From Clostridia bacterium (GTDB lineage Bacteria > Bacillota > Clostridia > Oscillospirales > CAG-272), in assembly GCA_017461945.1 (NCBI GenBank), contig JAFTSB010000061.1:1966-65965 (forward strand): a DNA stretch of 64,000 bases. The letters are read 5' to 3'. The notes under the pieces are model-generated. The model was given only the letters and a program-made list of their open reading frames with translations, ran no database searches and was not told the DNA's origin. The translations under genes and the position numbers were made by a program. Shown piece by piece: positions 15,631-33,995 of the stretch (the stretch's first letter is position 1; every line of letters begins with the position of its first letter).

Positions 15631-16368
15631 ATGAAAAAGAAAATTCTTGTTGTAGCTCTGGTCGTTTGCGTACTGGTTCTTTCCATCGCAAGCGCAACCA
15701 TGGCTTACTTCACCGACACTCATTCTGTAACCAATACCTTTACAGTTGGTGATGTTGACATCACCTTGACCGAGGCAGCAGTTATGCAGGATGAAACCAA
15801 CGGTAATATCGTTGCTGATCCTAACGCTGATCCTGTCCGTGTAGAGAATGGTATTGATTTCGGAACCGCGTACGGTTCTTTGTTCCCGATGCAGAGCATT
15901 TGCAAGGATCCCACCATCAACAATGTTGGTTCCGAGCAGGCTTACATCGGTGCAATCATTACGATTGCCAATGGCGAAGATAAAGTTGCTGGTGCTGATG
16001 TTACCAAACTGCTTACCTTTACCGGAGATGCTGCTGCTGATCTTGATGAGCTGGCAGTAAACGTCACCGACTTCCTGGTAGGCTTGATTGATAGCGGAGT
16101 AGCTACTGTTTCTTATGCCAAGGTTGACGGCACTGTTAAGGTTTACATTGTTGTGAAAGCTGCAGTTGCCGGTAACAATGCGGCTGGAGATATTGATTTG
16201 TTCCAATCTGTCAAAATTGCAGATAAGTGGGACAATGCGCAGATGAAAAATCTCAGCGATTTGGAGATCACCGTTGATGCTTACGCAACTCAGGTTGCAG
16301 GCATGGGCAACGATCCCGTTGCTGCATTGAACACTGCGTTTGAAGATATCTTTCCTACCAACCCCTAA
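15631..16368 (+). CDS. TasA/BsaA-like secreted subunit 3 (245 aa)
   Basis: ATMAYFTD, then TNTFTVGDV. C-terminal AYATQ. It starts 21 nt after the previous stop. Confidence 0.75.
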   Translation: MKKKILVVALVVCVLVLSIASATMAYFTDTHSVTNTFTVGDVDITLTEAAVMQDETNGNIVADPNADPVRVENGIDFGTAYGSLFPMQSICKDPTINNVGSEQAYIGAIITIANGEDKVAGADVTKLLTFTGDAAADLDELAVNVTDFLVGLIDSGVATVSYAKVDGTVKVYIVVKAAVAGNNAAGDIDLFQSVKIADKWDNAQMKNLSDLEITVDAYATQVAGMGNDPVAALNTAFEDIFPTNP

Positions 16369-16377
16369 TTTCGAATC

Positions 16378-16399
16378 CCCCCGCCCAGCGGGGCGGGGG
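16378..16399 (+). promoter_or_regulatory. very GC-rich hairpin after the third subunit gene (possible attenuator or processing/stability element)
   Basis: CCCCCGCCC / GGGCGGGGG 9-bp all-GC stem with loop AGCG. No clean T-run follows. A second imperfect ~12-bp hairpin lies at about 16431-16478. Confidence 0.4.
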
Positions 16400-16571
16400 A
16401 ACCCCCTCGCATCCCTTTATTTATAAGGTAGGGAAAGCGATAGGCGCTTTTGTTGGGATCTCGCATATCGCCTTTCCCTCCCTTAAATAACTCTCTCGTA
16501 CCTCACCGCGATTACCCCACCGCGCGCCTGGCGCGCAAACCACACACTCTGAAAGAAAGGAGGCTGAAAAA

Positions 16572-17240
16572 ATGGATCAGAATCCGTCCGTCACGACTAA
16601 CGAGCAAACGGTAGCCACCCCCGAATCCGTGGCCGCTAAAAAGAAGTCCTTTAAGCGTTCTCTTATCTCTATGCTCGCCATTACTGTAGTTGCCATTATC
16701 ATTTTTTCGGCCCAGACAGTTGCGTACTTTACCGATGACAATTCCACCGGTAAAAATGTCATTCAGTCCGGCAATTTGGATATCGAATTGATTGAAATGA
16801 CCGAGGTGGGAGGCAGCCAAGTGCTGTACACCAACCCTGTCAGTGTTATGCCTGCAACGTCTGTTAGCAAGATCGTATCGGTACACAACGCAGGCACTCT
16901 GCCCGTGTACGTCCGTGTCTCCTTGGAGACCGCGATCCATCAACATAACCAAGAAAAAAATCTACCCGATCATTGGCAGTCGCTGATTACCTGCAATATC
17001 AATGCAGAATATTGGACCTACCAAAACGGATATTTCTATTATAATTTGCCCCTTGAACCCGGCAAAAGCACCGCACCGCTGTTTGACACGGTCAGCTTTT
17101 CTCCCGCCATGGGCAACGAGTTCACCAATAGCGAGATCACCTTGACCGTTACCTCGGAGGCAACCCAATCTAACGGCACCGGTGAGACCGCAACCACCGC
17201 AACCGGCTGGCCCACAAGTGCCGCCACCACGCAGGAATGA
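16572..17240 (+). CDS. TasA/camelysin-like secreted protein 4 (222 aa)
   Basis: Long basic N-terminus, a TM segment, then QTVAYFTDD ... NVIQSGNLDIELIE. Later YVRVSLE ... GYFYYN.PLEPG ... LFDTVSF and the terminal EATQ follow the classic TasA/CalY layout. Confidence 0.7.
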   Translation: MDQNPSVTTNEQTVATPESVAAKKKSFKRSLISMLAITVVAIIIFSAQTVAYFTDDNSTGKNVIQSGNLDIELIEMTEVGGSQVLYTNPVSVMPATSVSKIVSVHNAGTLPVYVRVSLETAIHQHNQEKNLPDHWQSLITCNINAEYWTYQNGYFYYNLPLEPGKSTAPLFDTVSFSPAMGNEFTNSEITLTVTSEATQSNGTGETATTATGWPTSAATTQE

Positions 17241-17259
17241 TTGATTAAGGAAGGGAAAT

Positions 17260-25427: not shown

Positions 25428-25456
25428 TTGACCTTTTGACTATTGTGTGCTAATAT
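25428..25456 (+). promoter_or_regulatory. sigma-A-like promoter of the six-gene vWA/PP2C/kinase operon
   Basis: TTGACC (25428-33), a 17-nt spacer, then TAATAT (25451-56). Confidence 0.5.
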
Positions 25457-25525
25457 AGACATATAAACAGCCATTTTTTGTACAAAATGGTGCATATGGC
25501 TGAATTTTAACCTTGGGAGCAGGAC

Positions 25526-26659
25526 ATGAAACGCATTTTAACTATGATGTTGATCCCTTTGGTGCTGCTGATGGGGCTGATAGCCGTTTTGCCGGTTTTC
25601 GCCGCCCCCGACAACACCTGGGCAAAGCTCACCTACACCTTGACTCCAAAGACCGAAGGGGAAGTGAACCAGCCGGTGGAGTTCAACGGCGATTGTGAGA
25701 TCCCACGCGGCTGTACCATCTCCTTTAACGAGGCAACTGCCTCTTTGAAGGTGGATGGTCAAGAGGTTGCAAATGGCGTGGAACTCACCACAGCGGGCCA
25801 GTATTTGCTGACGGTAACCTCTAAGACTGACGGCAAATCGTTGGATTATACGGTGACGCTTCTGCCCGACATCAATGTCGCAGATGGTCAGGTATTCACC
25901 TCTTACCCTACTGTAGTGTGTGAGAACGCGATCTCCATGGAGTATCGCCGCAATTTGACCGAGACCGATTTCACATCGGGTACCGAGATCCGCACCCTGG
26001 GTGAGCATGTTGTGACCGTCTACGGTAAAACCGCCGAGGCCGGTTCCAGCAACACCACGTCCTTTGCTTATCATTTTTACGTGCGTCCCGTGCATTCCGA
26101 GCGCGTGTTGGATACGGCATCGGGAAAAGAGGCGCTGAACGTGACCGTGGGCAGCTTTGACGACCGCGAGATCGAGGCGATTTTGGATGGCAAGACCCTT
26201 GCCCCCGGCTCTAATATCGTCACCAAGGTTGGCACCCACACTCTTATGGTGTATGACAACGGTACCGAGATCACCTTGCCGCAGGCTCTGCCCGGCAGCG
26301 ACGCGCTGTCCTTGCGCATTGATGTCTGGATGGAAAGCGTCAAGCAAAAGGAACCCTTCTACTTTGATTTCAACGGCTGGGATGCCAAGATCCTGCTGGA
26401 CGGTAAAGAGGTTACGGGCGAGATCCGTATGGGCAGCCACGGCAGCCACACGCTGACCGTTGTGGACGGGGAAGGCAAAACCGTTGAAAATGCCTTTAAC
26501 CTTTGGGTTGGTGAGGCCAATAAGCCTACTCCCACCACCAAGGTGGAATTTACCTTTAACAATCCGCATCTCATCTATTTCATCATTGCAGCGGTGCCTG
26601 CGGTGGCGATCCTTGCGGTGGCGATCTACTTCCTTGCAGCAAGGAGGCGCGTTGTATGA
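25526..26659 (+). CDS. exported, C-terminally membrane-anchored protein with four Ig-like internal repeats
   Basis: Signal peptide MKRILTMMLIPLVLLMGLIAVLPVFA/AP. Four units of the type (V/L)DGK.(V/L)..G......G.H.L.V. C-terminal TM IYFIIAAVPAVAILAVAIYFLAARRR. Confidence 0.7.
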   Translation: MKRILTMMLIPLVLLMGLIAVLPVFAAPDNTWAKLTYTLTPKTEGEVNQPVEFNGDCEIPRGCTISFNEATASLKVDGQEVANGVELTTAGQYLLTVTSKTDGKSLDYTVTLLPDINVADGQVFTSYPTVVCENAISMEYRRNLTETDFTSGTEIRTLGEHVVTVYGKTAEAGSSNTTSFAYHFYVRPVHSERVLDTASGKEALNVTVGSFDDREIEAILDGKTLAPGSNIVTKVGTHTLMVYDNGTEITLPQALPGSDALSLRIDVWMESVKQKEPFYFDFNGWDAKILLDGKEVTGEIRMGSHGSHTLTVVDGEGKTVENAFNLWVGEANKPTPTTKVEFTFNNPHLIYFIIAAVPAVAILAVAIYFLAARRRVV

Positions 26660-28425
26660 CAAACTTTGAAAAAATCGTGCCGATCCTGGTGGCCGCGCTG
26701 GTGATCCTGACCGGCGTTATGCTGATTCTGTGCGCCCGTGTTGAGCGCCGCCTGGCTGACCGCAAACGGATCAAGCTGGCAACCTATAAAGAAAAAAGCA
26801 ACCTGTTCTATATTCTCAATGATGTGCCCACGGCTGTGATCGCCGGCGGCCTTGCTGTGCTTTCGCTGGTGCTGCTGGTCATGGCAGCCATCAATCCCGT
26901 GATCCGTTTTTACGCCTTTGTGCTGGCGGCACTTCTGCCGGCGCACGCGGTTACTTTCTATCTTTCTATGACGCGCAAGCGTTGTGGCCGTGATATCCGT
27001 GCCTTCGATACCTACTTTGTGCAGGTGGAAAATGTGCTGGCTAGAAAGGATCGCACCCTTTCGGATATCAAGGTGTGTCAGCGTCGCGTCAACGAGCTGC
27101 GCTCCAAGCTTTCAAAGACCATTCAGGAATTTAATCAGAATTTGGCCAAGGGCGTTTCGGGCGACTTTTTGCCCACCTTGTTCCGCCCCATTGACCACAT
27201 GATCGACGATTATATCCAGGAAATCTACCGCTTTTCTGCCGAGGTCGAGGTCAACTTTGACAAGGCGCTGCAGGAGTTCTTGCACAACGAGGTGGTGCCC
27301 GAGTTCCGTTCCGTGCCTCTGCGCACCTTCGATGAGACCGCCGTTGACGATCTGCTGGCGGGCATCAAATCCTCTTATGGCGAACGCATCGCCGGTATGG
27401 TGGTAGAGCAGGTCAACCGCGGCGCTGTGAAAAGCGCCAAGGCGCTGGGGAACATTATGACCCTTTTGTACCGCCTTGAGGTGGAAATGGACAATGAGAC
27501 TCTTGCTCGTTTCCTGGAGGCCGCTTCTCGCTTTGACGATAGAGAAGAGCTGGCTACGCTTCTGTATCAAAACCGCCAGATCTCTGCCGCTATGGTGCGC
27601 GAGATCTTTATCCCACGAAATTGGGAGTGGGCCTTTGTGCCCGGTATGGCAGAGGCCTTTAACCGCCGCGAGCTTCCCCTCATTCTTTCCGACCTGTTAA
27701 AGGCTGACCGCGCCGCTATGTGCGCTCGCTTTCTCTCCCGTTTTGATACGGCAATGATGGATATTCTGGATGCTTCTTTGGATGACGCATCCTTGCCCGA
27801 GAATGCCGCTGTGAAAACCGCTAACGCCTATCGCTTGATTTTGAAAAAGACCTATGCTGTTGGCAATAGCGCCACCTTGTTTGAAAATATGGGCTACATG
27901 CTCTATGATCACCGCACCGAAATGGATTTCACACCCGAGGAGCAGGATCGTATTGCCGAGATCGTTCGCACCGAGTCTTTCTATACCGCTCGCCGCGAGG
28001 TGGTGGAATTCTATGGCCGCGCCGTCCGTTATGGTGCGCCCTTGGTGGCCTCTACCATCCGTATTTTGGTGCAATACATCATTGCTGCTCCGGCTGATTT
28101 CCTGGACCCTGCACGACTTGCCGCTCTGTTGGGCGAGTACCGTGAGACCGTTAGCTTTGGCGATCTTGGCACAATGCGCGCCCTGCTTGCTGCTTGGCTG
28201 CTGAAGACCTCCAAGGATGAGGCTGTGATCAACTTGGTGCTGGATGAGCTGACCGCCGTGCCTGCTGTGGCACCGCTGGCCGCCAGACCCACCGTGCCGG
28301 AAGCCCCCCAGCTGGGTGCCGCCATTTTGGCGCACCTGACCCAAAATGACCGCGTGCGGTTGCGTTCTGTGGTATACCGCACCGAAAGCACCAGACGGAT
28401 GCTGGATAGCATCCTGCGCCTTTGA
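26656..28425 (+). CDS. 589-aa membrane protein with N-terminal TM segments and a large helical cytoplasmic region, unknown function
   Basis: ATGA overlap with the upstream gene. There are about 3 N-terminal hydrophobic spans. The remainder is rich in Leu, Ala, Glu and Arg. I recognise no motif. Confidence 0.7.
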   Translation: MTNFEKIVPILVAALVILTGVMLILCARVERRLADRKRIKLATYKEKSNLFYILNDVPTAVIAGGLAVLSLVLLVMAAINPVIRFYAFVLAALLPAHAVTFYLSMTRKRCGRDIRAFDTYFVQVENVLARKDRTLSDIKVCQRRVNELRSKLSKTIQEFNQNLAKGVSGDFLPTLFRPIDHMIDDYIQEIYRFSAEVEVNFDKALQEFLHNEVVPEFRSVPLRTFDETAVDDLLAGIKSSYGERIAGMVVEQVNRGAVKSAKALGNIMTLLYRLEVEMDNETLARFLEAASRFDDREELATLLYQNRQISAAMVREIFIPRNWEWAFVPGMAEAFNRRELPLILSDLLKADRAAMCARFLSRFDTAMMDILDASLDDASLPENAAVKTANAYRLILKKTYAVGNSATLFENMGYMLYDHRTEMDFTPEEQDRIAEIVRTESFYTARREVVEFYGRAVRYGAPLVASTIRILVQYIIAAPADFLDPARLAALLGEYRETVSFGDLGTMRALLAAWLLKTSKDEAVINLVLDELTAVPAVAPLAARPTVPEAPQLGAAILAHLTQNDRVRLRSVVYRTESTRRMLDSILRL

Positions 28426-28444
28426 AAGGAGGTAAGGGAATCAC

Positions 28445-29071
28445 ATGGAAAATATGGAAAAGACCCCGCGCCTTCTGATCTCCTTTGTGACCGATAACAG
28501 CGCCTCAATGGAGGGGGAGCGCCTTGGCGCTCTGGTTGCCGCCTTCCGTGCCTTTGCGGAGCGCATGAAGGGAAATCCCATTGTGGAATGGGAGCTGCTG
28601 ACCTTTGACACCTTTGCCCCTGCCGTTGTTAAGAGCTTTGAATCCGATACGGTGGCACCTGTGGCCGGCGAACGCTTTCCCTTGCTGGGCAGAGCGGTGC
28701 TTACCGCCGCCCAACGGTTGCATGATCGCGTTGGGGCATTGAAGCAGCAGGGCCATCACGTCTTTCGCCCTTGGATGTTCATTTTGTCCGATGGCTTCAC
28801 CATGGATGCGATGGAGGAGGCTGCCGTCAAGCTGGATGGCTTGGAAAAGAATGGCGAGCTGCTGTATCTGCCGTTCCGCCTTTCCAAAGAGCTTACGACA
28901 GAGCGGTTGCAGTGTCTGGATCGCAACAAGCATATGATCGAGATCCTCCCAGAGGGAATAGACGGCTTTTTTGCCTTTGTAGAGCGTATGATCGAGCAGC
29001 GCGCGGCGCTGGCTCCCGACGTTGGCGTGAAATTCGCCAAAACCGACTTTGAAGGGTGGGCTGTGCTATGA
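28445..29071 (+). CDS. von Willebrand factor A (vWA) domain protein
   Basis: MIDAS DxSxS appears as VTDNSASMEG. A later ILSDGFTMD follows. GGAGG RBS. Confidence 0.75.
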   Translation: MENMEKTPRLLISFVTDNSASMEGERLGALVAAFRAFAERMKGNPIVEWELLTFDTFAPAVVKSFESDTVAPVAGERFPLLGRAVLTAAQRLHDRVGALKQQGHHVFRPWMFILSDGFTMDAMEEAAVKLDGLEKNGELLYLPFRLSKELTTERLQCLDRNKHMIEILPEGIDGFFAFVERMIEQRAALAPDVGVKFAKTDFEGWAVL

Positions 29072-30009
29072 TTCTGCAAAAATGGAAGCAGTGCGGCGCC
29101 GCCGTACAGGGCGTGGACCACATTCACGCCAATGTGCCCTGTCAGGATAATGTGGCGCACGCCGCTATGAACGGGGTTTATGCCATCGCCCTATCCGACG
29201 GTGGCGGCAGCCGCAAGTTTTCACACATCGGCTCGGAGCACGCTACCAAGGCGGCCTGCGAGCTGTTGGTGCAAAAGTTTGATACGTATTACAGTATTTT
29301 GGACCAAATCAAGGGTGGAGACCCCAAAGCCGACAAGCTGCTGCTGCGCTTGCGGTTGGAGATTTTGGATGCTGTGTTGAGTGCGATGCGCGCCCAAACC
29401 ACCGCAGAGCGTACGTTGTACGACTTTGGATGTACGTTGCAGTTCACTGCCGTGAAGGATGGCCGCTACATCGTGGGTCACGTGGGCGACGGTGTCATCG
29501 CTGCCTTGTATCAAAAGGGCCTTTCTCGCAAGGTGGAGGTGCTTTCTCATCCCGAAAACGCCGGTGCGCCGAACGTCACCTTCTTTGTGACCGACCACGA
29601 TGCCGAAGCGCATTTGCGCCTCTCCCACGGGGAATGCCGCCAGCTGGAGGGCATTCTGATGATGTCTGACGGCCCGGAAGAGGTGTTGTACACCACCGCC
29701 GGCGGTATGCACAAAAACACGCAAAAGCTGTTTGATAACTATATGGGACATGGCCGTGCCGAGTATACGGCTGCATTGGAAAAGTTCTTGAAGGGGAATA
29801 TCGCCAAGCACAGCTACGACGACCTCAGCCTGAACGTGCTATATCTGGAGACTGCGGACTATGCCGCGTTGTCGCCCGAATACAAGCAGGAGGTTTTGGA
29901 GGGTGTCACCGCCAAAAATCAAGTTCGTCACATCAGCAGCTATGCTTGCCTGCTGGATCCCTCTACCCCTGCAAAGGGTGCCGATGATCTTTCTTTCTTG
30001 AGGTGCTGA
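29068..30009 (+). CDS. PP2C-family protein phosphatase
   Basis: AVQGVDHIHANVPCQD ... IALSDGGGS ... GHVGDGVIAAL ... ILMMSDGPEE are PP2C acidic and Gly motifs. ATG 29068 overlaps the vWA stop (ATGA). Confidence 0.75.
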   Translation: MILQKWKQCGAAVQGVDHIHANVPCQDNVAHAAMNGVYAIALSDGGGSRKFSHIGSEHATKAACELLVQKFDTYYSILDQIKGGDPKADKLLLRLRLEILDAVLSAMRAQTTAERTLYDFGCTLQFTAVKDGRYIVGHVGDGVIAALYQKGLSRKVEVLSHPENAGAPNVTFFVTDHDAEAHLRLSHGECRQLEGILMMSDGPEEVLYTTAGGMHKNTQKLFDNYMGHGRAEYTAALEKFLKGNIAKHSYDDLSLNVLYLETADYAALSPEYKQEVLEGVTAKNQVRHISSYACLLDPSTPAKGADDLSFLRC

Positions 30010-30010
30010 T

Positions 30011-31348
30011 ATGAGTAAAAAGAATTATTATTATCTTGACGCCTCGGTGCTTCTGGAGGAGGATTTTTACCAGACCGTGCAGGAGTATTGCCGCACCGTG
30101 CCCGATCTTGCCTTTGTGCTGGATGGTGGCATCTACCACGAGATCGAAAGCTATCGCAGCCTCGGTCGGGTAGAGGAGGCACTGACACTTGAAAACTTTA
30201 TCAATCTGTTTGCCGCACTTGGCATTGCGTTGCAGGTGGATACCGCAGGGGGCTTTGACCCCTCGGCGCTCGCCCCTCTGGCGCAGGAGAATCTCTTTGT
30301 TGTGACCCAGCAGCAAAAGCTGGTGGATAACTTTGGCGAGCTGGGTGAAAGCGTCACCTTCCTGCATGTGGTGCAGGGGCGCCCCGTGCCGTTCCCACGC
30401 GGAATTTCTGAAAACGGTGCAGCGTTTTGCCCCGATCGTGACATTTATGTCAACCCCTTTGACGGCGAAAAGGTGGATTATGTTTACTCCCCCCGTTATG
30501 GCTATTTGAAGCTGGATAAAAGCAAGGCCTTTTCGGGCGGCGAGGGCGTTTGCTACCGCACCTACAATGGCCTTTTCTGCAAGCTGTATTTCAAAAAGCA
30601 CATCACCTATGTCAATTACAAAAAACTGCAGGCAATGGTGGATATGGGCTGTTCTATGCCGTATATCTCCTGGCCCTTGGATATCCTGTACTATCGCAAC
30701 CAATTCGTGGGCTATGTTATGGAGGAGCTTTCTGACACTCGCTCGGTGGATGACCTGCGCGACGATAACTTCTCGGGCTTCCGCATTCTGGATCGCTTTG
30801 TGATCGTACGCAATTTCCTCAAGATCATTGAGTATCTCCACGGCCGTGATATTCTGGTGGGCGATATGAAGCTGGATAACATTCTGGTCAAGCCAAACGG
30901 TGATGTTTACCTCATTGATGCAGGCAGTTTTCAAGTGGGCGATTACGCCTGCAACGTATGCCACGCCGAATATACCGAGCGTATCTATACCGGCGATGAT
31001 CTCAAGCACATTCTGCGCAGCGTGAGAGAGGAATATTTCCCCATCAATAAGATCATTTTTGAGATTTTAATGATGAAGGGCCCCTTCTACAGTAAGGATA
31101 ACACCGAGATCGACGGCACCGGCAGTCGCGACTTCACGTATCCAATGGAGTTTCCTGCTGAGGGGGCTGCCGCCCTGCCTTACCACTACAAGATGTGGTT
31201 TGCACTCAGTCCCGCCATGCGGCAGTATTTTTACCGCTACTTCACCGAGGGTAAGGTGACTTACGTTTCCGAATGGCTGCGCGAGCTTGACCTGTACATT
31301 ATGGCCAAGCAAAAGGCCGCGGCAAAGCGTGCACAAGCTGAACAGTAA
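30011..31348 (+). CDS. Ser/Thr protein kinase-like protein with an N-terminal extension
   Basis: Gly-rich loop GGEGVCY, Lys in FCKLYFK, catalytic loop ILVGDMKLDNILV, and DFG-equivalent LIDAGSF. It starts 1 nt after the PP2C stop. Confidence 0.75.
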   Translation: MSKKNYYYLDASVLLEEDFYQTVQEYCRTVPDLAFVLDGGIYHEIESYRSLGRVEEALTLENFINLFAALGIALQVDTAGGFDPSALAPLAQENLFVVTQQQKLVDNFGELGESVTFLHVVQGRPVPFPRGISENGAAFCPDRDIYVNPFDGEKVDYVYSPRYGYLKLDKSKAFSGGEGVCYRTYNGLFCKLYFKKHITYVNYKKLQAMVDMGCSMPYISWPLDILYYRNQFVGYVMEELSDTRSVDDLRDDNFSGFRILDRFVIVRNFLKIIEYLHGRDILVGDMKLDNILVKPNGDVYLIDAGSFQVGDYACNVCHAEYTERIYTGDDLKHILRSVREEYFPINKIIFEILMMKGPFYSKDNTEIDGTGSRDFTYPMEFPAEGAAALPYHYKMWFALSPAMRQYFYRYFTEGKVTYVSEWLRELDLYIMAKQKAAAKRAQAEQ

Positions 31349-31372
31349 GAAAGCAAAAAGGAGAAATATATC

Positions 31373-32059
31373 ATGGATATGAACGGATTTTTTGAAGATC
31401 TTGACTTTGGCGATTTTTCGGCACCGTCCTCGGGTAGCTCCCGCAAGGTTCCGATCTGCCTTGTACTGGACTGCAGCGGCTCGATGCGTTATGCCGATGG
31501 CACCAAGCGCCCCAAGATCGATGAGTTGAATGTGAACATTGACGCCTTTTTGGAGTACGTGCGCAACGACCCCAAGGCCTCTAAGATCTGCGACTTGTGT
31601 ATCATCACCATGGGCGACTCGGTGCGCGTGGTTTCCCGTTATACGACCGTGGATCGCATCCACTTCGGTCATTTCGCTGCCAGCGGCGGCACCCCTCTGG
31701 GCACGGCAATGAAAACCGCTGTTGATCTGCTGACCGAGCGCCGTCAGTACTACCGCGATAACGATATTGAGCATTACAAGCCCATTCTGATGGTCATGAC
31801 TGACGGTGACCCCACCGACGACATTTCCTATATCTCCCGCCAGGTCTCCGATATGGTGGCCAATAAGGAGATCAAGATCTTCCCCGTGGGCATCGGTGTC
31901 AACTTCAATCACGGCACCCTGGCACAGTTCTCGCCTTTGCTCAAGCCCAAGCTGATCCGCAATTCCGAGGCCTTTGATAAGCTGTTTAAGCTGCTCAGTG
32001 CCTCCTCCAGTAACCCCAACGACGACTCGTTGGAAAAGTGGTTCAACAACGATTTTTGA
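31373..32059 (+). CDS. TerY-like vWA domain protein
   Basis: Complete MIDAS: VLDCSGSM, GGTPLGTAM and MVMTDGDPTD. AAAGGAG RBS. Confidence 0.8.
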   Translation: MDMNGFFEDLDFGDFSAPSSGSSRKVPICLVLDCSGSMRYADGTKRPKIDELNVNIDAFLEYVRNDPKASKICDLCIITMGDSVRVVSRYTTVDRIHFGHFAASGGTPLGTAMKTAVDLLTERRQYYRDNDIEHYKPILMVMTDGDPTDDISYISRQVSDMVANKEIKIFPVGIGVNFNHGTLAQFSPLLKPKLIRNSEAFDKLFKLLSASSSNPNDDSLEKWFNNDF

Positions 32060-32067
32060 TTCTTTCA

Positions 32068-32097
32068 ACGGCGCAAGCATCCGCTTGCGCCGTTTTT
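32068..32097 (+). terminator. intrinsic terminator closing the six-gene operon
   Basis: ACGGCGCAAGC / GCTTGCGCCGT 11-bp stem with loop ATCC, followed by TTTTT. Confidence 0.8.
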
Positions 32098-32129: not shown

Positions 32130-32158
32130 TTGTCAAAAGGGGAAAAATGTGGTATACT
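32130..32158 (+). promoter_or_regulatory. sigma-A-like promoter
   Basis: TTGTCA (32130-35), a 17-nt spacer, then TATACT (32153-58). Confidence 0.45.
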
Positions 32159-32189
32159 AATGCCAGTAAACGCGGAAAGGATGGTGGAA

Positions 32190-33995
32190 ATGAAAAAAAT
32201 AGGTATCGTGCTGCTTGTCACGCTGTCCTTGCTTGCAAGTGCCGTGCTTCCCATAGCGGCCACGCCCAACGATCCTCTCATTGCCGCCACTCGCACAAAG
32301 CTGGAGCAGACCCTGGGCATTGACACCCCCGGTGCCGCCGTGGTGTTGGATCGGGGCGGTGAAACCCTCCTGCTGGAGGGCTATGGTTATGCGGATATCA
32401 ACAGCCGCGTGCTGGTCCATCCCGAAACGGTCTTTGAGCTGGGCGAGCTTTCGTCGCTGTTTGTGGTTCTTGCGGCATATCGGCTGGCCGAGAACGGCGC
32501 CGTATCGCTGGATGCCAATATTGCAGATTATCTGCCCGACCCGATGGAAAAAAAGCTGGGACTTGCCCACGTCACCACTCTGCGTCAGCTGCTGCTTGGC
32601 TGTGGCGGCTTTGAGGGCAGGACCTTTGACTTAATTTTTGATACCCCCACGGGGCGCTTTGACACCTTGGAGCAAGCGTTGCTTGCCGAGGTGCCGCGCC
32701 AAATCGCCGCCCCGGGTACGTTTTATGCTTATTCCGAATTCGGCATCGCGCTGGCCGCCTATGTGGTGGAATGCATTGCCGGTGTACCCTATGACGAGTA
32801 TGTGACCGCGGAGATCCTTACCCCCCTTGGCATGGAGCACACCGTGCTGGATCCGGATGAAAATGCAGCCGGTACCTACGATGCCTCGGGTCACGTTTTC
32901 TTGGGAGAGGGAAGGTTTGCCGTGGAAAAGGAGCAGGGGCGCAGCTATGCCGGCCTCTATCCTGCTACAGGCGCAAGATCTGCTGCAGCAGATCTTGCCC
33001 GTCTGCTTGCCGCTTTGAATGGTGGAAGTGGACTGCTTTCTTCCGCTTCCTGCAACGAAATTCTGACCTTTGCCTTTGAAAACGGCATATTCGCGGTTTC
33101 TGCCCCCGGCATGACGGTACAGGGCGGCGCCCGCGGTATTTCGGCAAATACCCTTTCTTTTGGGGCAAGTCTGTGGTTTTCTCCTGCTACCAAAACCGCT
33201 GTTTTGGTGATGACAAACGTACAAAAAAGCGATCTTTTAACTCTGCCCGCGGAGTTGTGCGGCGCTCACATTGGCAAGGAGACCGCCCTTGGAGGGAACC
33301 TCACCGACCTGCAAGTTTTTCGCGGTGTATATACCTTGGCAGACCGTGAGGATCACAGCTTTGTAGGCCTCCTTGACCGAAAGGATCACAGCTTTAAGTG
33401 TGAGGTTTTGGAGGATGGTACGCTTTCTTTTTTGGATATGACCTTGCGTCAGGTTTCTCCTGGTGTGTTTGCCAAGGCGGATGACACCGCCGATGTGGCG
33501 CAGCTTCAATTTTTGATGGATCAGACCGGCAAGGTCTATGCGGTTGTAACCGCCGCCGGCGAGACCTATCTGCCGGTGCCCTTCCTGCAGCAAAAGATCC
33601 CTGCAACCCTGTTGTTTTTTCTCTTGTTGGCGTTGGCGGCGTGGTTTTTGTTTGCCGGTATTGTTTCAACGGTTCGCTATCTTGCCTTTCGCTATGAAGA
33701 GGGCAGAGAGCCCTTTGTATATACCTTGCCGCTGCTTTTTGCCGCCTTAGTCAGCCTGCTGGCTTTGTTGCAGGTTTGGGTGGGTGTGCAATGGGGCGCT
33801 ATGGCATATTCCTCTTTCTTTGGTGCAATGTCAGTGATCACGGTGTTGTTCACCTTTGGTGCTTTGGCGTGCTTGATCGTGGCCTTTATGGCTTCTCTGA
33901 CGCGAAAGGGGATGACCACCCGTGTGGTACGCACCGCACTGCTGTTTATTGCCTTTGTATTGGTGCTCCATTTCTGGGGCTTGTCGGCGCTTTAA
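32190..33995 (+). CDS. beta-lactamase-fold domain protein (catalytic motif degenerate) fused to a polytopic C-terminal membrane domain
   Basis: Signal/TM MKKIGIVLLVTLSLLASAVLPIAA. FELGELSSLFVV occupies the position of the F.(I/L)GS.SK.F motif. YSE replaces YSN. The last ~170 aa contain several TM spans. Confidence 0.75.
   Translation: MKKIGIVLLVTLSLLASAVLPIAATPNDPLIAATRTKLEQTLGIDTPGAAVVLDRGGETLLLEGYGYADINSRVLVHPETVFELGELSSLFVVLAAYRLAENGAVSLDANIADYLPDPMEKKLGLAHVTTLRQLLLGCGGFEGRTFDLIFDTPTGRFDTLEQALLAEVPRQIAAPGTFYAYSEFGIALAAYVVECIAGVPYDEYVTAEILTPLGMEHTVLDPDENAAGTYDASGHVFLGEGRFAVEKEQGRSYAGLYPATGARSAAADLARLLAALNGGSGLLSSASCNEILTFAFENGIFAVSAPGMTVQGGARGISANTLSFGASLWFSPATKTAVLVMTNVQKSDLLTLPAELCGAHIGKETALGGNLTDLQVFRGVYTLADREDHSFVGLLDRKDHSFKCEVLEDGTLSFLDMTLRQVSPGVFAKADDTADVAQLQFLMDQTGKVYAVVTAAGETYLPVPFLQQKIPATLLFFLLLALAAWFLFAGIVSTVRYLAFRYEEGREPFVYTLPLLFAALVSLLALLQVWVGVQWGAMAYSSFFGAMSVITVLFTFGALACLIVAFMASLTRKGMTTRVVRTALLFIAFVLVLHFWGLSAL

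Follow-up and report, generated by a model that had tools for sequence, protein, structure and literature searches.

A six-gene bacterial cassette joins a TerY-P-type phosphorylation module to an Ig-repeat surface protein and to membrane proteins of a new family

TerY-P triads, in which a von Willebrand factor A (vWA) protein, a PP2C phosphatase and a Hanks-type Ser/Thr kinase are encoded together, are widespread: they are found in E. coli K-12, in tellurite-resistance islands and in McrBC/CoCoNuT loci, and have been reported as an anti-phage system. What such a switch might respond to is the question raised by an operon in a 64,000-nucleotide stretch of a Clostridia bacterium genome (contig JAFTSB010000061.1 of assembly GCA_017461945.1, positions 1,966 to 65,965 of the forward strand), called the window hereafter and numbered from its own first letter. 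Six tightly packed plus-strand genes, g1 to g6, occupy positions 25526-32059 and leave no space for further genes in the open reading frame (ORF) listing; g1 encodes a surface protein with immunoglobulin (Ig)-like repeats, g2 a large membrane protein, and g3 to g6 a TerY-P-type module with an additional vWA protein. We propose, with about even confidence, that the operon is a self-contained transmembrane signalling device, in which a two-protein receptor made of g1 and g2 is wired to the TerY-P-type phospho-switch g3-g6.

The initial annotation of this DNA had described six genes read as one transcription unit from a TTGACC-17-TAATAT promoter to a strong terminator, and both the genes and their junctions were recovered as described. 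The first gene, g1 (25526-26659, 377 aa), overlaps g2 (26656-28425, 589 aa) by an ATGA; after 19 nt g3 follows (28445-29071, 208 aa), which overlaps g4 (29068-30009, 313 aa counted from the ATG) in the same manner, while g5 (30011-31348, 445 aa) is spaced from g4 by 1 nt and g6 (31373-32059, 228 aa) from g5 by 24 nt. Shine-Dalgarno sequences (GGAG, AAGGAGG or GAGG) lie upstream of all six starts. The sigma-70-type promoter, with a TG-extended -10 (25428-25456, plus strand), was located by pattern scan and alignment. Because the region holds 13 matches to the pattern, this one among them, the pattern alone is little proof; the call is convincing because of the conservation seen when six orthologous upstream regions are aligned (the window, L008, L009, L010, L011 and L013). 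In these, the -35, the spacing and a TGnTAAnAT -10 are kept, and the only other conserved features are an AT-rich element and a palindrome in the 5' untranslated region (UTR). The AT-rich element, AACTATAAACTTTTTGTGAAT (25403-25423, plus strand), sits just 5' of the -35, where it may serve as an UP-like element or a regulator site; it is kept as TATAAAnTTTTTGTGAA in five to six orthologous loci, the remaining intergenic region being unconserved. In the 5' UTR, an inverted repeat CAGCCAT...ATGGCTG (25468-25502, plus strand) surrounds the palindrome TTTTGTACAAAA. Its arms covary across loci (CGGCCTT/AAGGCCG in L011, CCTTCC/GGAAGG in L010) around a TGTGCAA-like palindromic core that is kept, and the L011 5' UTR holds a perfect 16-bp palindrome, TGTGCAATATTGCACA. 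Judged by its sequence, this candidate element could be an operator for some repressor or an RNA hairpin; the Rfam search yielded two tRNAs only and no match to it. Downstream, the intrinsic terminator (32067-32097, plus strand) has a 12-bp G+C-rich stem (32067-32094) followed by a T run, with a dG of -22.5 kcal/mol and a z of -5.5 against shuffles; it was absent from the list produced by a simple pattern scan. The genes g1-g6 are a single transcription unit, inherited as a block in gut Clostridia and in relatives that lack a wall.

Evidence for block inheritance comes from a kinase-anchored scan of 185,579 species, each represented by a single genome, which returned 36 loci, 32 of them cassette-type. 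In all but one of the 26 contigs that reach positions 1-2, a signal-peptide protein anchored by a C-terminal transmembrane (TM) helix (362-2057 aa) is followed by a 3-TM protein of ~590 aa, a vWA protein corresponding to g3 (vWA'), a PP2C, a kinase and a second vWA protein. In L029, the one exception, the g1 position is taken by a 177-aa ORF that lacks a TM segment, and shorter contigs agree with the cassette as far as they reach. Searching from g2 leads to the same arrangement: whether g2 relatives are 59%, 47% or about 20% identical, they stand in cassette context, as far as their contigs extend. The proposal that g1 and g2 are co-conserved with the triad is therefore upheld from both directions. 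Altogether, the cassette order was found in the window and about 30 distinct loci, from at least four orders and with differing flanks; carriers are Oscillospiraceae, Christensenella, unclassified Eubacteriales, Haloplasmataceae, Inordinaticella and Izemoplasma. When flanking ORFs of 30 loci were clustered, only the six cassette genes were common to all. A chance juxtaposition of the six genes is ruled out by this block conservation. More distant kinase relatives (in Thermoguttaceae, Demequina, Fusobacterium, and on Lysinibacillus and Paenarthrobacter plasmids) belong to classical kinase-vWA-PP2C triads without g1 or g2. Among 50,697 phage records no cassette relatives were found, and plasmids gave distant kinase-core matches only.

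Within the block, conservation decreases from the inside of the cell to the outside. Median identity to the window proteins, computed for 10 close and 10 distant loci, is 89% for g6, 73% for g5, 72% for g4, 61% for g3, 53% for g2 and 37% for g1 in the close set, and 52%, 44%, 39%, 29%, 20% and 24%, respectively, in the distant set. The order is thus g6 > g5 ≈ g4 > g3 > g2 > g1, g6 being the most conserved component and g1 the fastest-evolving; in L008, the closest of the relatives compared, the kinase is 83-84% identical and g1 50%, a divergence too great for synonymous rates of g1 to be reliable.

The assignment of g3-g6 to the TerY-P type, first made from the combination of vWA, PP2C and kinase, is supported by homology to the E. 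coli proteins YegL, PphC and YegI. In pairwise BLASTP against K-12 proteins, g6 is 33% identical to YegL (E 4e-27), g3 27% identical to YegL (E 4e-10), g4 28% identical to PphC/YegK (E 5e-12) and g5 21% identical to the YegI kinase core (E 1e-6). Pfam matches g4 to PP2C_2 (1.4e-36), and its metal-binding residues D27, D44, D141, D201 and D251/D252 are conserved. For g6 (VWA, 1.3e-10), the metal-ion-dependent adhesion site (MIDAS) is complete and invariant (D33, S35, S37, T107 and D144, with the motif DCSGS), and the protein ends in a conserved Ser-rich tail, LSASSSNPNDD...W, whose F..LSxSxS...W pattern is common to YegL and the classical triads of Thermoguttaceae and Demequina; phmmer found no g6 relatives in the PDB. 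The initial readings of g4 as a PP2C phosphatase and of g6 as a TerY-like vWA protein with a full MIDAS are thereby confirmed. For g3, which matches VWA_2 weakly (1.8e-3), the outcome is divided. The MIDAS motif DNSAS ascribed to it is present in the window copy, but across the family only D17, N18, P108-W109 and a C-terminal G-W reach at least 90% conservation; DNSAS is therefore not a family feature, its S-x-S part being unconserved. By its sequence, g3 is a divergent TerY-like vWA paralogue with a degenerate MIDAS, so that the duplication of the vWA gene holds insofar as a second TerY-like paralogue exists, and fails insofar as the paralogue falls short of a full vWA. Longer homologues of g3 have N-terminal extensions, for which Pfam gave no match at E up to 10.

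As initially noted, g5 (Pkinase, 5.5e-6) is kinase-like and carries the motifs GDMKLDN and IDAG, the latter replacing DFG. The kinase fold and catalytic residues had been set beforehand as the test of this identification, and both were found. The AlphaFold2 model (pLDDT 90.8, pTM 0.89) has a canonical kinase fold, with PknB as best match (probability 1.0) and ~2000 kinase chains at E < 1e-3; the G-loop, K191, D285, K287, N290 and D303 (of IDAG) are invariant in a 42-sequence alignment. At the level of sequence, both g4 and g5 retain all catalytic residues. The kinase spans about residues 150-445, the core being followed in the model by a loop and three helices (391-444) and no beta-barrel, and it is preceded by an N-terminal alpha/beta domain of (beta-alpha)5-like layout (residues 1-127, about 1-130). 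No hydrophobic or TM segment was found, hence g5 is taken to be soluble. The N-terminal domain is blank in Pfam at E up to 10, and BLASTP against a plasmid PIN-kinase gave nothing; hhalign assigned 58% probability to a match with one PIN_4 region and 0.3% with another, and the domain has no conserved acidic residues, which leaves a degenerate PIN domain as a lead. Two plasmid loci of Paenarthrobacter and Lysinibacillus (L047 5062-7503 and L048 5065-7647) encode classical TerY-P kinases with an N-terminal PIN_4 domain, one of them with a treble-clef Zn domain. Separately, a Bacillota metagenome-assembled genome (MAG) encodes a 298-aa kinase without the N-terminal domain that is 57% identical to the g5 kinase domain (L006 8001-8897, the same as L027); it stands alone, its neighbours being an HGSNAT_cat membrane protein on one side and a MatE transporter on the other, and neither a PP2C nor a vWA gene is close by.

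The membrane protein g2 has three N-terminal TM helices (about 11-29, 61-79 and 85-105) and Arg/Lys-rich cytoplasmic loops, and in its AlphaFold2 model (pLDDT 86.7) the 480-aa body is wholly helical and cytoplasmic. External loops are almost nil and the large helical body lies on the cytoplasmic side, in agreement with the architecture first assigned to it. No meaningful match was obtained in Pfam, NCBIfam or PADLOC, the cytoplasmic body being blank in Pfam at E up to 10; the g2 profile matched no PDB sequence, and Foldseek comparison of the model with PDB and BFVD gave helical-repeat noise only (E > 0.1). An exhaustive profile search of 1.84 billion representatives found 80 clusters, nearly all of 570-615 aa and matched end to end. 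A word-indexed search gave 66 relatives, all from Clostridia or Oscillospiraceae metagenomes, and a scan of metagenome contigs with the g2 profile gave one short locus only. Residues conserved throughout the family are scattered; most of them lie in the cytoplasmic loop between TM1 and TM2, in the stretch following TM3, and in an R.E..R..D motif near the C-terminus. g2 is a new protein family of a single architecture, seen only in the six-gene cassette.

On the other side of the membrane, g1 has a cleavable-looking signal peptide, four Ig-like repeats of ~70 aa each (common pattern DG..V..G..(I/L)...G.H.(L/V).V; sub-threshold Pfam match to the Ig-like BiPBP_C, 4e-4), a conserved juxtamembrane motif F-x-F-x-N-P-H, a C-terminal TM helix and an RRRVV tail. 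It is extracytoplasmic and anchored by its single C-terminal TM helix; topology and repeat alignment agree with the signal peptide, four repeats and C-terminal anchor of the initial description. Its homologues range from 362 to 2057 aa and exchange repeat types (BiPBP_C, Bact_surface_Ig-like, Flg_new and Glug). The distal part is variable, with 4 to more than 20 repeats of differing Pfam types; the last repeats, the F.[FY].NP[HNY] motif, the TM helix and the RR[RK].V C-terminus are conserved. A sortase signal at the C-terminus was considered and rejected, the hydrophobic segment lacking a preceding LPXTG.

How could these parts work together? From topology and conservation we infer that the cassette senses the envelope. 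A physical g1-g2 complex is supported because the two proteins are strictly co-inherited and translationally coupled and because the membrane-proximal elements of g1 are conserved. In the proposed mechanism, the lineage-variable Ig-repeat ectodomain of g1 would bind or feel a cue at the cell surface, and the signal would pass through the juxtamembrane NP motif, the TM helix and the basic tail to the 3-TM bundle of g2. The conserved cytoplasmic loops and helical scaffold of g2 would dock the vWA proteins and the soluble kinase g5, the latter probably via its N-terminal alpha/beta domain. The kinase probably phosphorylates itself and the Ser-rich C-terminal tail of g6, and g4 probably resets the switch, by analogy with YegI/PphC in vitro and with archaeal ArnB. 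The phosphorylation state of g6 would then govern its MIDAS-dependent binding or assembly, with g3 as an adaptor. No output is encoded in the window; it would most likely be the phosphorylation of cellular targets or the assembly of a membrane-proximal complex. For the Mollicute-like relatives, a more specific output can be suggested. Eight Haloplasmataceae, Inordinaticella and Izemoplasma loci (L005, L025, L029, L033, L039, L040, L044 and L045) carry a second conserved block directly 3' of the cassette (e.g. L005 10083-15964, L044 12210-20878 and L045 12211-18034). It comprises a Band_7_1 (SPFH) and Zn-ribbon protein, three small proteins (~105, ~190-213 and ~194 aa) and an AAA+ ATPase of the classical AAA type (PF00004), not a MoxR, which also matches Vps4_C weakly, and it ends either in a ~760-aa TIR_2 protein or in a Zn-ribbon protein, a second canonical kinase-PP2C-vWA triad and an RCC1-repeat protein. 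The window has no such SPFH-AAA+-TIR block, which in these relatives could act as an effector downstream of the switch. In the same group, the Izemoplasma-type loci have extra conserved genes 5' of the g1 position (L005 507-2616, L039 2576-4736, L040 1438-4392 and L045 3873-4598): a soluble protein of ~241-244 aa in all four, and an N-terminal-TM protein of ~390-430 aa in L005, L039 and L040, the L005 copy of which has faint TPR matches.

The cassette may be compared with several known systems. Taken broadly, a TerY-P triad consists of a vWA protein, a PP2C and a Hanks-type kinase, all of which are present here; linkage to Ter genes, typical of the founding examples and not required, is lacking. 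The same three protein families share one operon, the module is attached to other gene sets, as TerY-P modules are, and g6 has the hallmarks of TerY (full MIDAS, RPW-type motif region, LSxSxS...W tail). Differences lie in the order vWA'-PP2C-kinase-vWA with its extra, MIDAS-degenerate vWA, in a kinase that has an N-terminal alpha/beta domain and is devoid of a C-terminal Zn-ribbon, OB fold or TM segment, and in the tie to two membrane or extracytoplasmic proteins instead of the Ter, McrBC/CoCoNuT or FtsK-WXG100 modules with which TerY-P triads are associated (PMC11090510; PMC4978471), or DNA-processing enzymes. No TerD, TerB, TerC or TerZ domain occurs in the window flanks or in the 25 Pfam families that are commonest in a set of 135 flanking proteins, which agrees with the initial remark that other Ter genes are absent. 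Similarly, no AAA+ or MoxR-class ATPase is present in or beside the window cassette, which sets it apart from vWA-MoxR/Bat systems. PADLOC gave a weak match of g6 to TerY (E 5.8e-4), weak matches of g5 to the generic kinase models PD-T4-6, MkoA and mad6, and none for g4, and NCBIfam added nothing specific for the cassette. The operon is accordingly no piece of a Ter or MoxR system, nor of one listed in PADLOC.

The triad was initially said to lack an experimentally characterized mechanism, which is partly true. YegI, a membrane protein with two passes, has kinase activity and is dephosphorylated by PphC in vitro (10.1101/819920; 10.1101/303594); in addition, TerY-P-like triads have been reported to act as anti-phage systems on their own (Gao et al. 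2020, cited in PMC11090510). The homologous YegL-PphC(YegK)-YegI locus resembles the cassette in its gene order in E. coli B strains, vWA-PP2C-kinase with ATGA overlaps (10.1101/819920). It contains, however, a single vWA gene and no g1 or g2 equivalents, and YegI, at 646-648 aa, lacks the motif VI Asn, whereas g5 is soluble, measures 445 aa and keeps N290; the membrane part of the cassette resides in the separate proteins g1 and g2. The anti-phage TerY-P system of Gao et al. 2020 (Gao_TerY in PADLOC/DefenseFinder) shares vWA, PP2C and kinase, but only g6 of the cassette is recognized, and weakly, among the three proteins of the PADLOC model. The cassette also has extra membrane genes, and the OB fold at the C-terminus of the Gao-type kinase (PMC11090510) is missing from the g5 model. 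Type III-A CoCoNuT insertions are likewise flanked by two TerY-like vWA genes that bracket other components (PMC11090510), yet in the cassette the vWA genes bracket the PP2C and kinase themselves, and McrBC, helicase and HEPN are absent. The same article links a TerY-like vWA to a SpoVK/CDC48-type AAA+, which resembles the AAA+ block 3' of the Mollicute-like cassettes. PknB/PrkC-PrpC also couples an extracellular repeat domain to a Hanks kinase with a PP2C reset, and PknB is the best fold match of g5; there, sensor, TM and kinase form one polypeptide, whereas in the cassette they are divided among g1, g2 and g5, and the vWA proteins belong to the system as well. A precedent for a cytoplasmic vWA as kinase substrate is the archaeal ArnA/ArnB-ArnC/ArnD module, in which, as reportedly found by Reimann and colleagues in 2012 and Hoffmann and colleagues in 2019, the C-terminal region of the vWA protein is phosphorylated by Hanks-type kinases and its phospho-state controls protein-protein binding. 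Its likeness to the cassette is the vWA fold; the FHA partner and the control of archaellum genes have no counterpart here, nor has the membrane receptor pair there.

An alternative that we regard as possible, if doubtful, is an anti-phage or conflict system, with g1 as a sensor or decoy for phage adsorption or envelope breach, g2 as relay, and a TerY-P switch that causes growth arrest or abortive infection by phosphorylating host or phage proteins, in some lineages through the SPFH-AAA-TIR block. The reported stand-alone triads and those embedded in CoCoNuT/McrBC (PMC11090510) speak for it, as do the classical relatives on plasmids beside transposases with PIN_4-kinase fusions, the rare and phyletically scattered occurrence of the cassette and the rapid evolution of g1. 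The eight Mollicute-like loci with their appended Band_7/Zn-ribbon, AAA+, TIR_2 or second-triad genes point the same way, and so does a Christensenella locus adjoining a serine recombinase: in this MAG (L004 11338-13014), a sigma-70 family gene and the gene of the recombinase, which is a large one (Resolvase/Recombinase/Zn_ribbon_recom), lie at most 1.4 kb 3' of the cassette, the sole mobile-element hint seen beside a full cassette. Against a defence role, PADLOC matches to cassette proteins are limited to those given above, the window version has no effector domain, phage records hold no cassette relatives, and plasmids only the distant kinase cores. The genomic surroundings also disagree with it. 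In Christensenella-type loci, the cassette has a stable position, with ruvX on its 5' side and DUF1292, rpsB, tsf and pyrH on its 3' side. The census of 135 flanking proteins from 29 loci consists mostly of housekeeping families (RuvX, S2, EF-Ts, beta-lactamase-like, MarR) and gives no picture of defence islands, with sporadic PADLOC matches: cross-matches to mad3, mad8, AriA and HEC-01A, which we tentatively ascribe to ABC-type ATPases, since four census members have Pfam matches to ABC_tran and AAA_21, and single matches to PDC-S04, E1-E2 and SoFic. In the window, two sugar-phosphate isomerase-like genes, a Gfo/Idh/MocA oxidoreductase, tRNA-Pro and tRNA-Leu are found on the 5' side. On the 3' side come a membrane protein of the beta-lactamase family, a gene called MarR-like after the Pfam annotation that its syntenic counterpart has in L002, and another membrane protein. 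The order beta-lactamase-family plus MarR-like recurs in the window, L008, L009, L011 and L013 and is therefore an Oscillospiraceae-specific synteny. The Clostridia contexts are most compatible with chromosomal surface or envelope sensing, which they fit better than mobile phage defence, and because these contexts are stable and of housekeeping type we favour physiological surface or envelope signalling; the defence role is kept alive by TerY-P family history, by how fast g1 evolves and by the TIR/AAA genes that extend the cassette in Mollicute-like lineages.

Two further explanations give g1 and g2 a different part. The signal might run from inside to outside, so that g1 is the output and the phospho-switch and g2 regulate the anchoring, clustering or conformation of an Ig-repeat adhesin, loosely like talin and integrin. 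Features that invite this comparison are the adhesin-like g1 homologues, which reach 2057 aa and contain Listeria-Bacteroides repeats as well as Bact_surface_Ig-like and BiPBP_C domains, the g1/g2 coupling by ATGA overlap, the conserved juxtamembrane motif, TM and basic tail of g1, and the large helical cytoplasmic body of g2, which is devoid of a catalytic motif. We nevertheless judge it improbable: g1 of the window is a short protein of four repeats in which no adhesive domain can be recognised at the tip, no cassette component senses an intracellular cue, and the direction of signalling is not readable from sequence. Finally, a Ter-type metal or xenobiotic stress module, in which the vWA MIDAS senses metal, the triad signals tellurite-like or oxidative stress and g1 and g2 are merely co-located, would suit the complete, invariant MIDAS of g6, its homology to the TerY-like YegL and the metal-sensing phospho-switch hypothesised for TerY-P by Anantharaman et al. 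2012, as cited in PMC11090510 and PMC4978471. This is very improbable, since g1 and g2 are strictly co-inherited and translationally coupled and hence not incidental; the MIDAS of g3 is moreover degenerate, and TerD, TerB, TerC and TerZ are absent from the window flanks and from the families tabulated in the flank census.

Several points also weigh against the transmembrane signalling device that we propose. The contacts of g1 with g2, and of g2 with the soluble proteins, are inferred. The transducer role of g2 is deduced from topology only, because no catalytic-looking signature is visible among its conserved residues. The cassette does not encode a ligand, an output domain or a transcription factor, and the Ser-rich tail of g6 is a candidate substrate of g5. 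A fast-evolving g1 would suit an adhesin or a phage-facing protein equally well, TerY-P relatives elsewhere are linked to defence (PMC11090510), and eight loci carry a TIR/AAA block beside the cassette.

Some features of the surrounding DNA are of interest in their own right. The tRNA-Pro(GGG) and tRNA-Leu(CAG) genes (22049-22286) lie 3.2 kb 5' of the operon, and no integrase or island-boundary repeat was seen nearby. Directly 3' of the cassette, the 621-aa beta-lactamase-family protein (32130-33995) ends in long hydrophobic stretches, and its gene has its own promoter-like site, TTGTCA-17-TATACT with a TG (32130-32158). Further upstream, a plus-strand cluster (15631-21956) encodes two camelysin/TasA-like (Peptidase_M73) proteins of 245 and 222 aa, an Lgt prolipoprotein diacylglyceryl transferase, and proteins of 1046 and 189 aa without Pfam matches; it may be a TasA-type fibre or surface-assembly locus.

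While the triad itself is known, the duplicated MIDAS-degenerate vWA, the kinase with an N-terminal domain and the order vWA'-PP2C-kinase-vWA appear undescribed in the literature searched, where no paper describing the six-gene arrangement was found. The chief novelty, the obligatory tie to the new membrane family g2 and the variable surface protein g1, appears undescribed as well. Because the triad is joined to a dedicated, co-inherited membrane module with an extracellular face, its input side is experimentally approachable, and one carrier, Inordinaticella fortuita 4B, is apparently a strain and not a MAG. The g2 family offers a confidently predicted fold without structural relatives in PDB or BFVD, and the Mollicute-like loci suggest a possible link between TerY-type switches and SPFH/AAA+/TIR modules. 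More broadly, and as a tentative suggestion, Bacillota and Mollicute-like bacteria could possess, in these cassettes, transmembrane receptors of a new class that are split over several proteins. Whether the event outside the cell is a ligand, contact with a cell or host, or the adsorption of a phage, an exchangeable Ig-repeat protein and a 3-TM scaffold of novel fold would turn it into Ser/Thr phosphorylation of the cytoplasmic vWA proteins, and in Mollicute-like lineages the receptor would feed an SPFH-AAA-TIR effector arm. The cassette may thus reveal what the widespread TerY-P switches listen to; if the split-receptor reading is true, a TerY-P switch would for the first time have an identified physiological input, and bacteria would have an analogue of the outside-in signalling of integrins.

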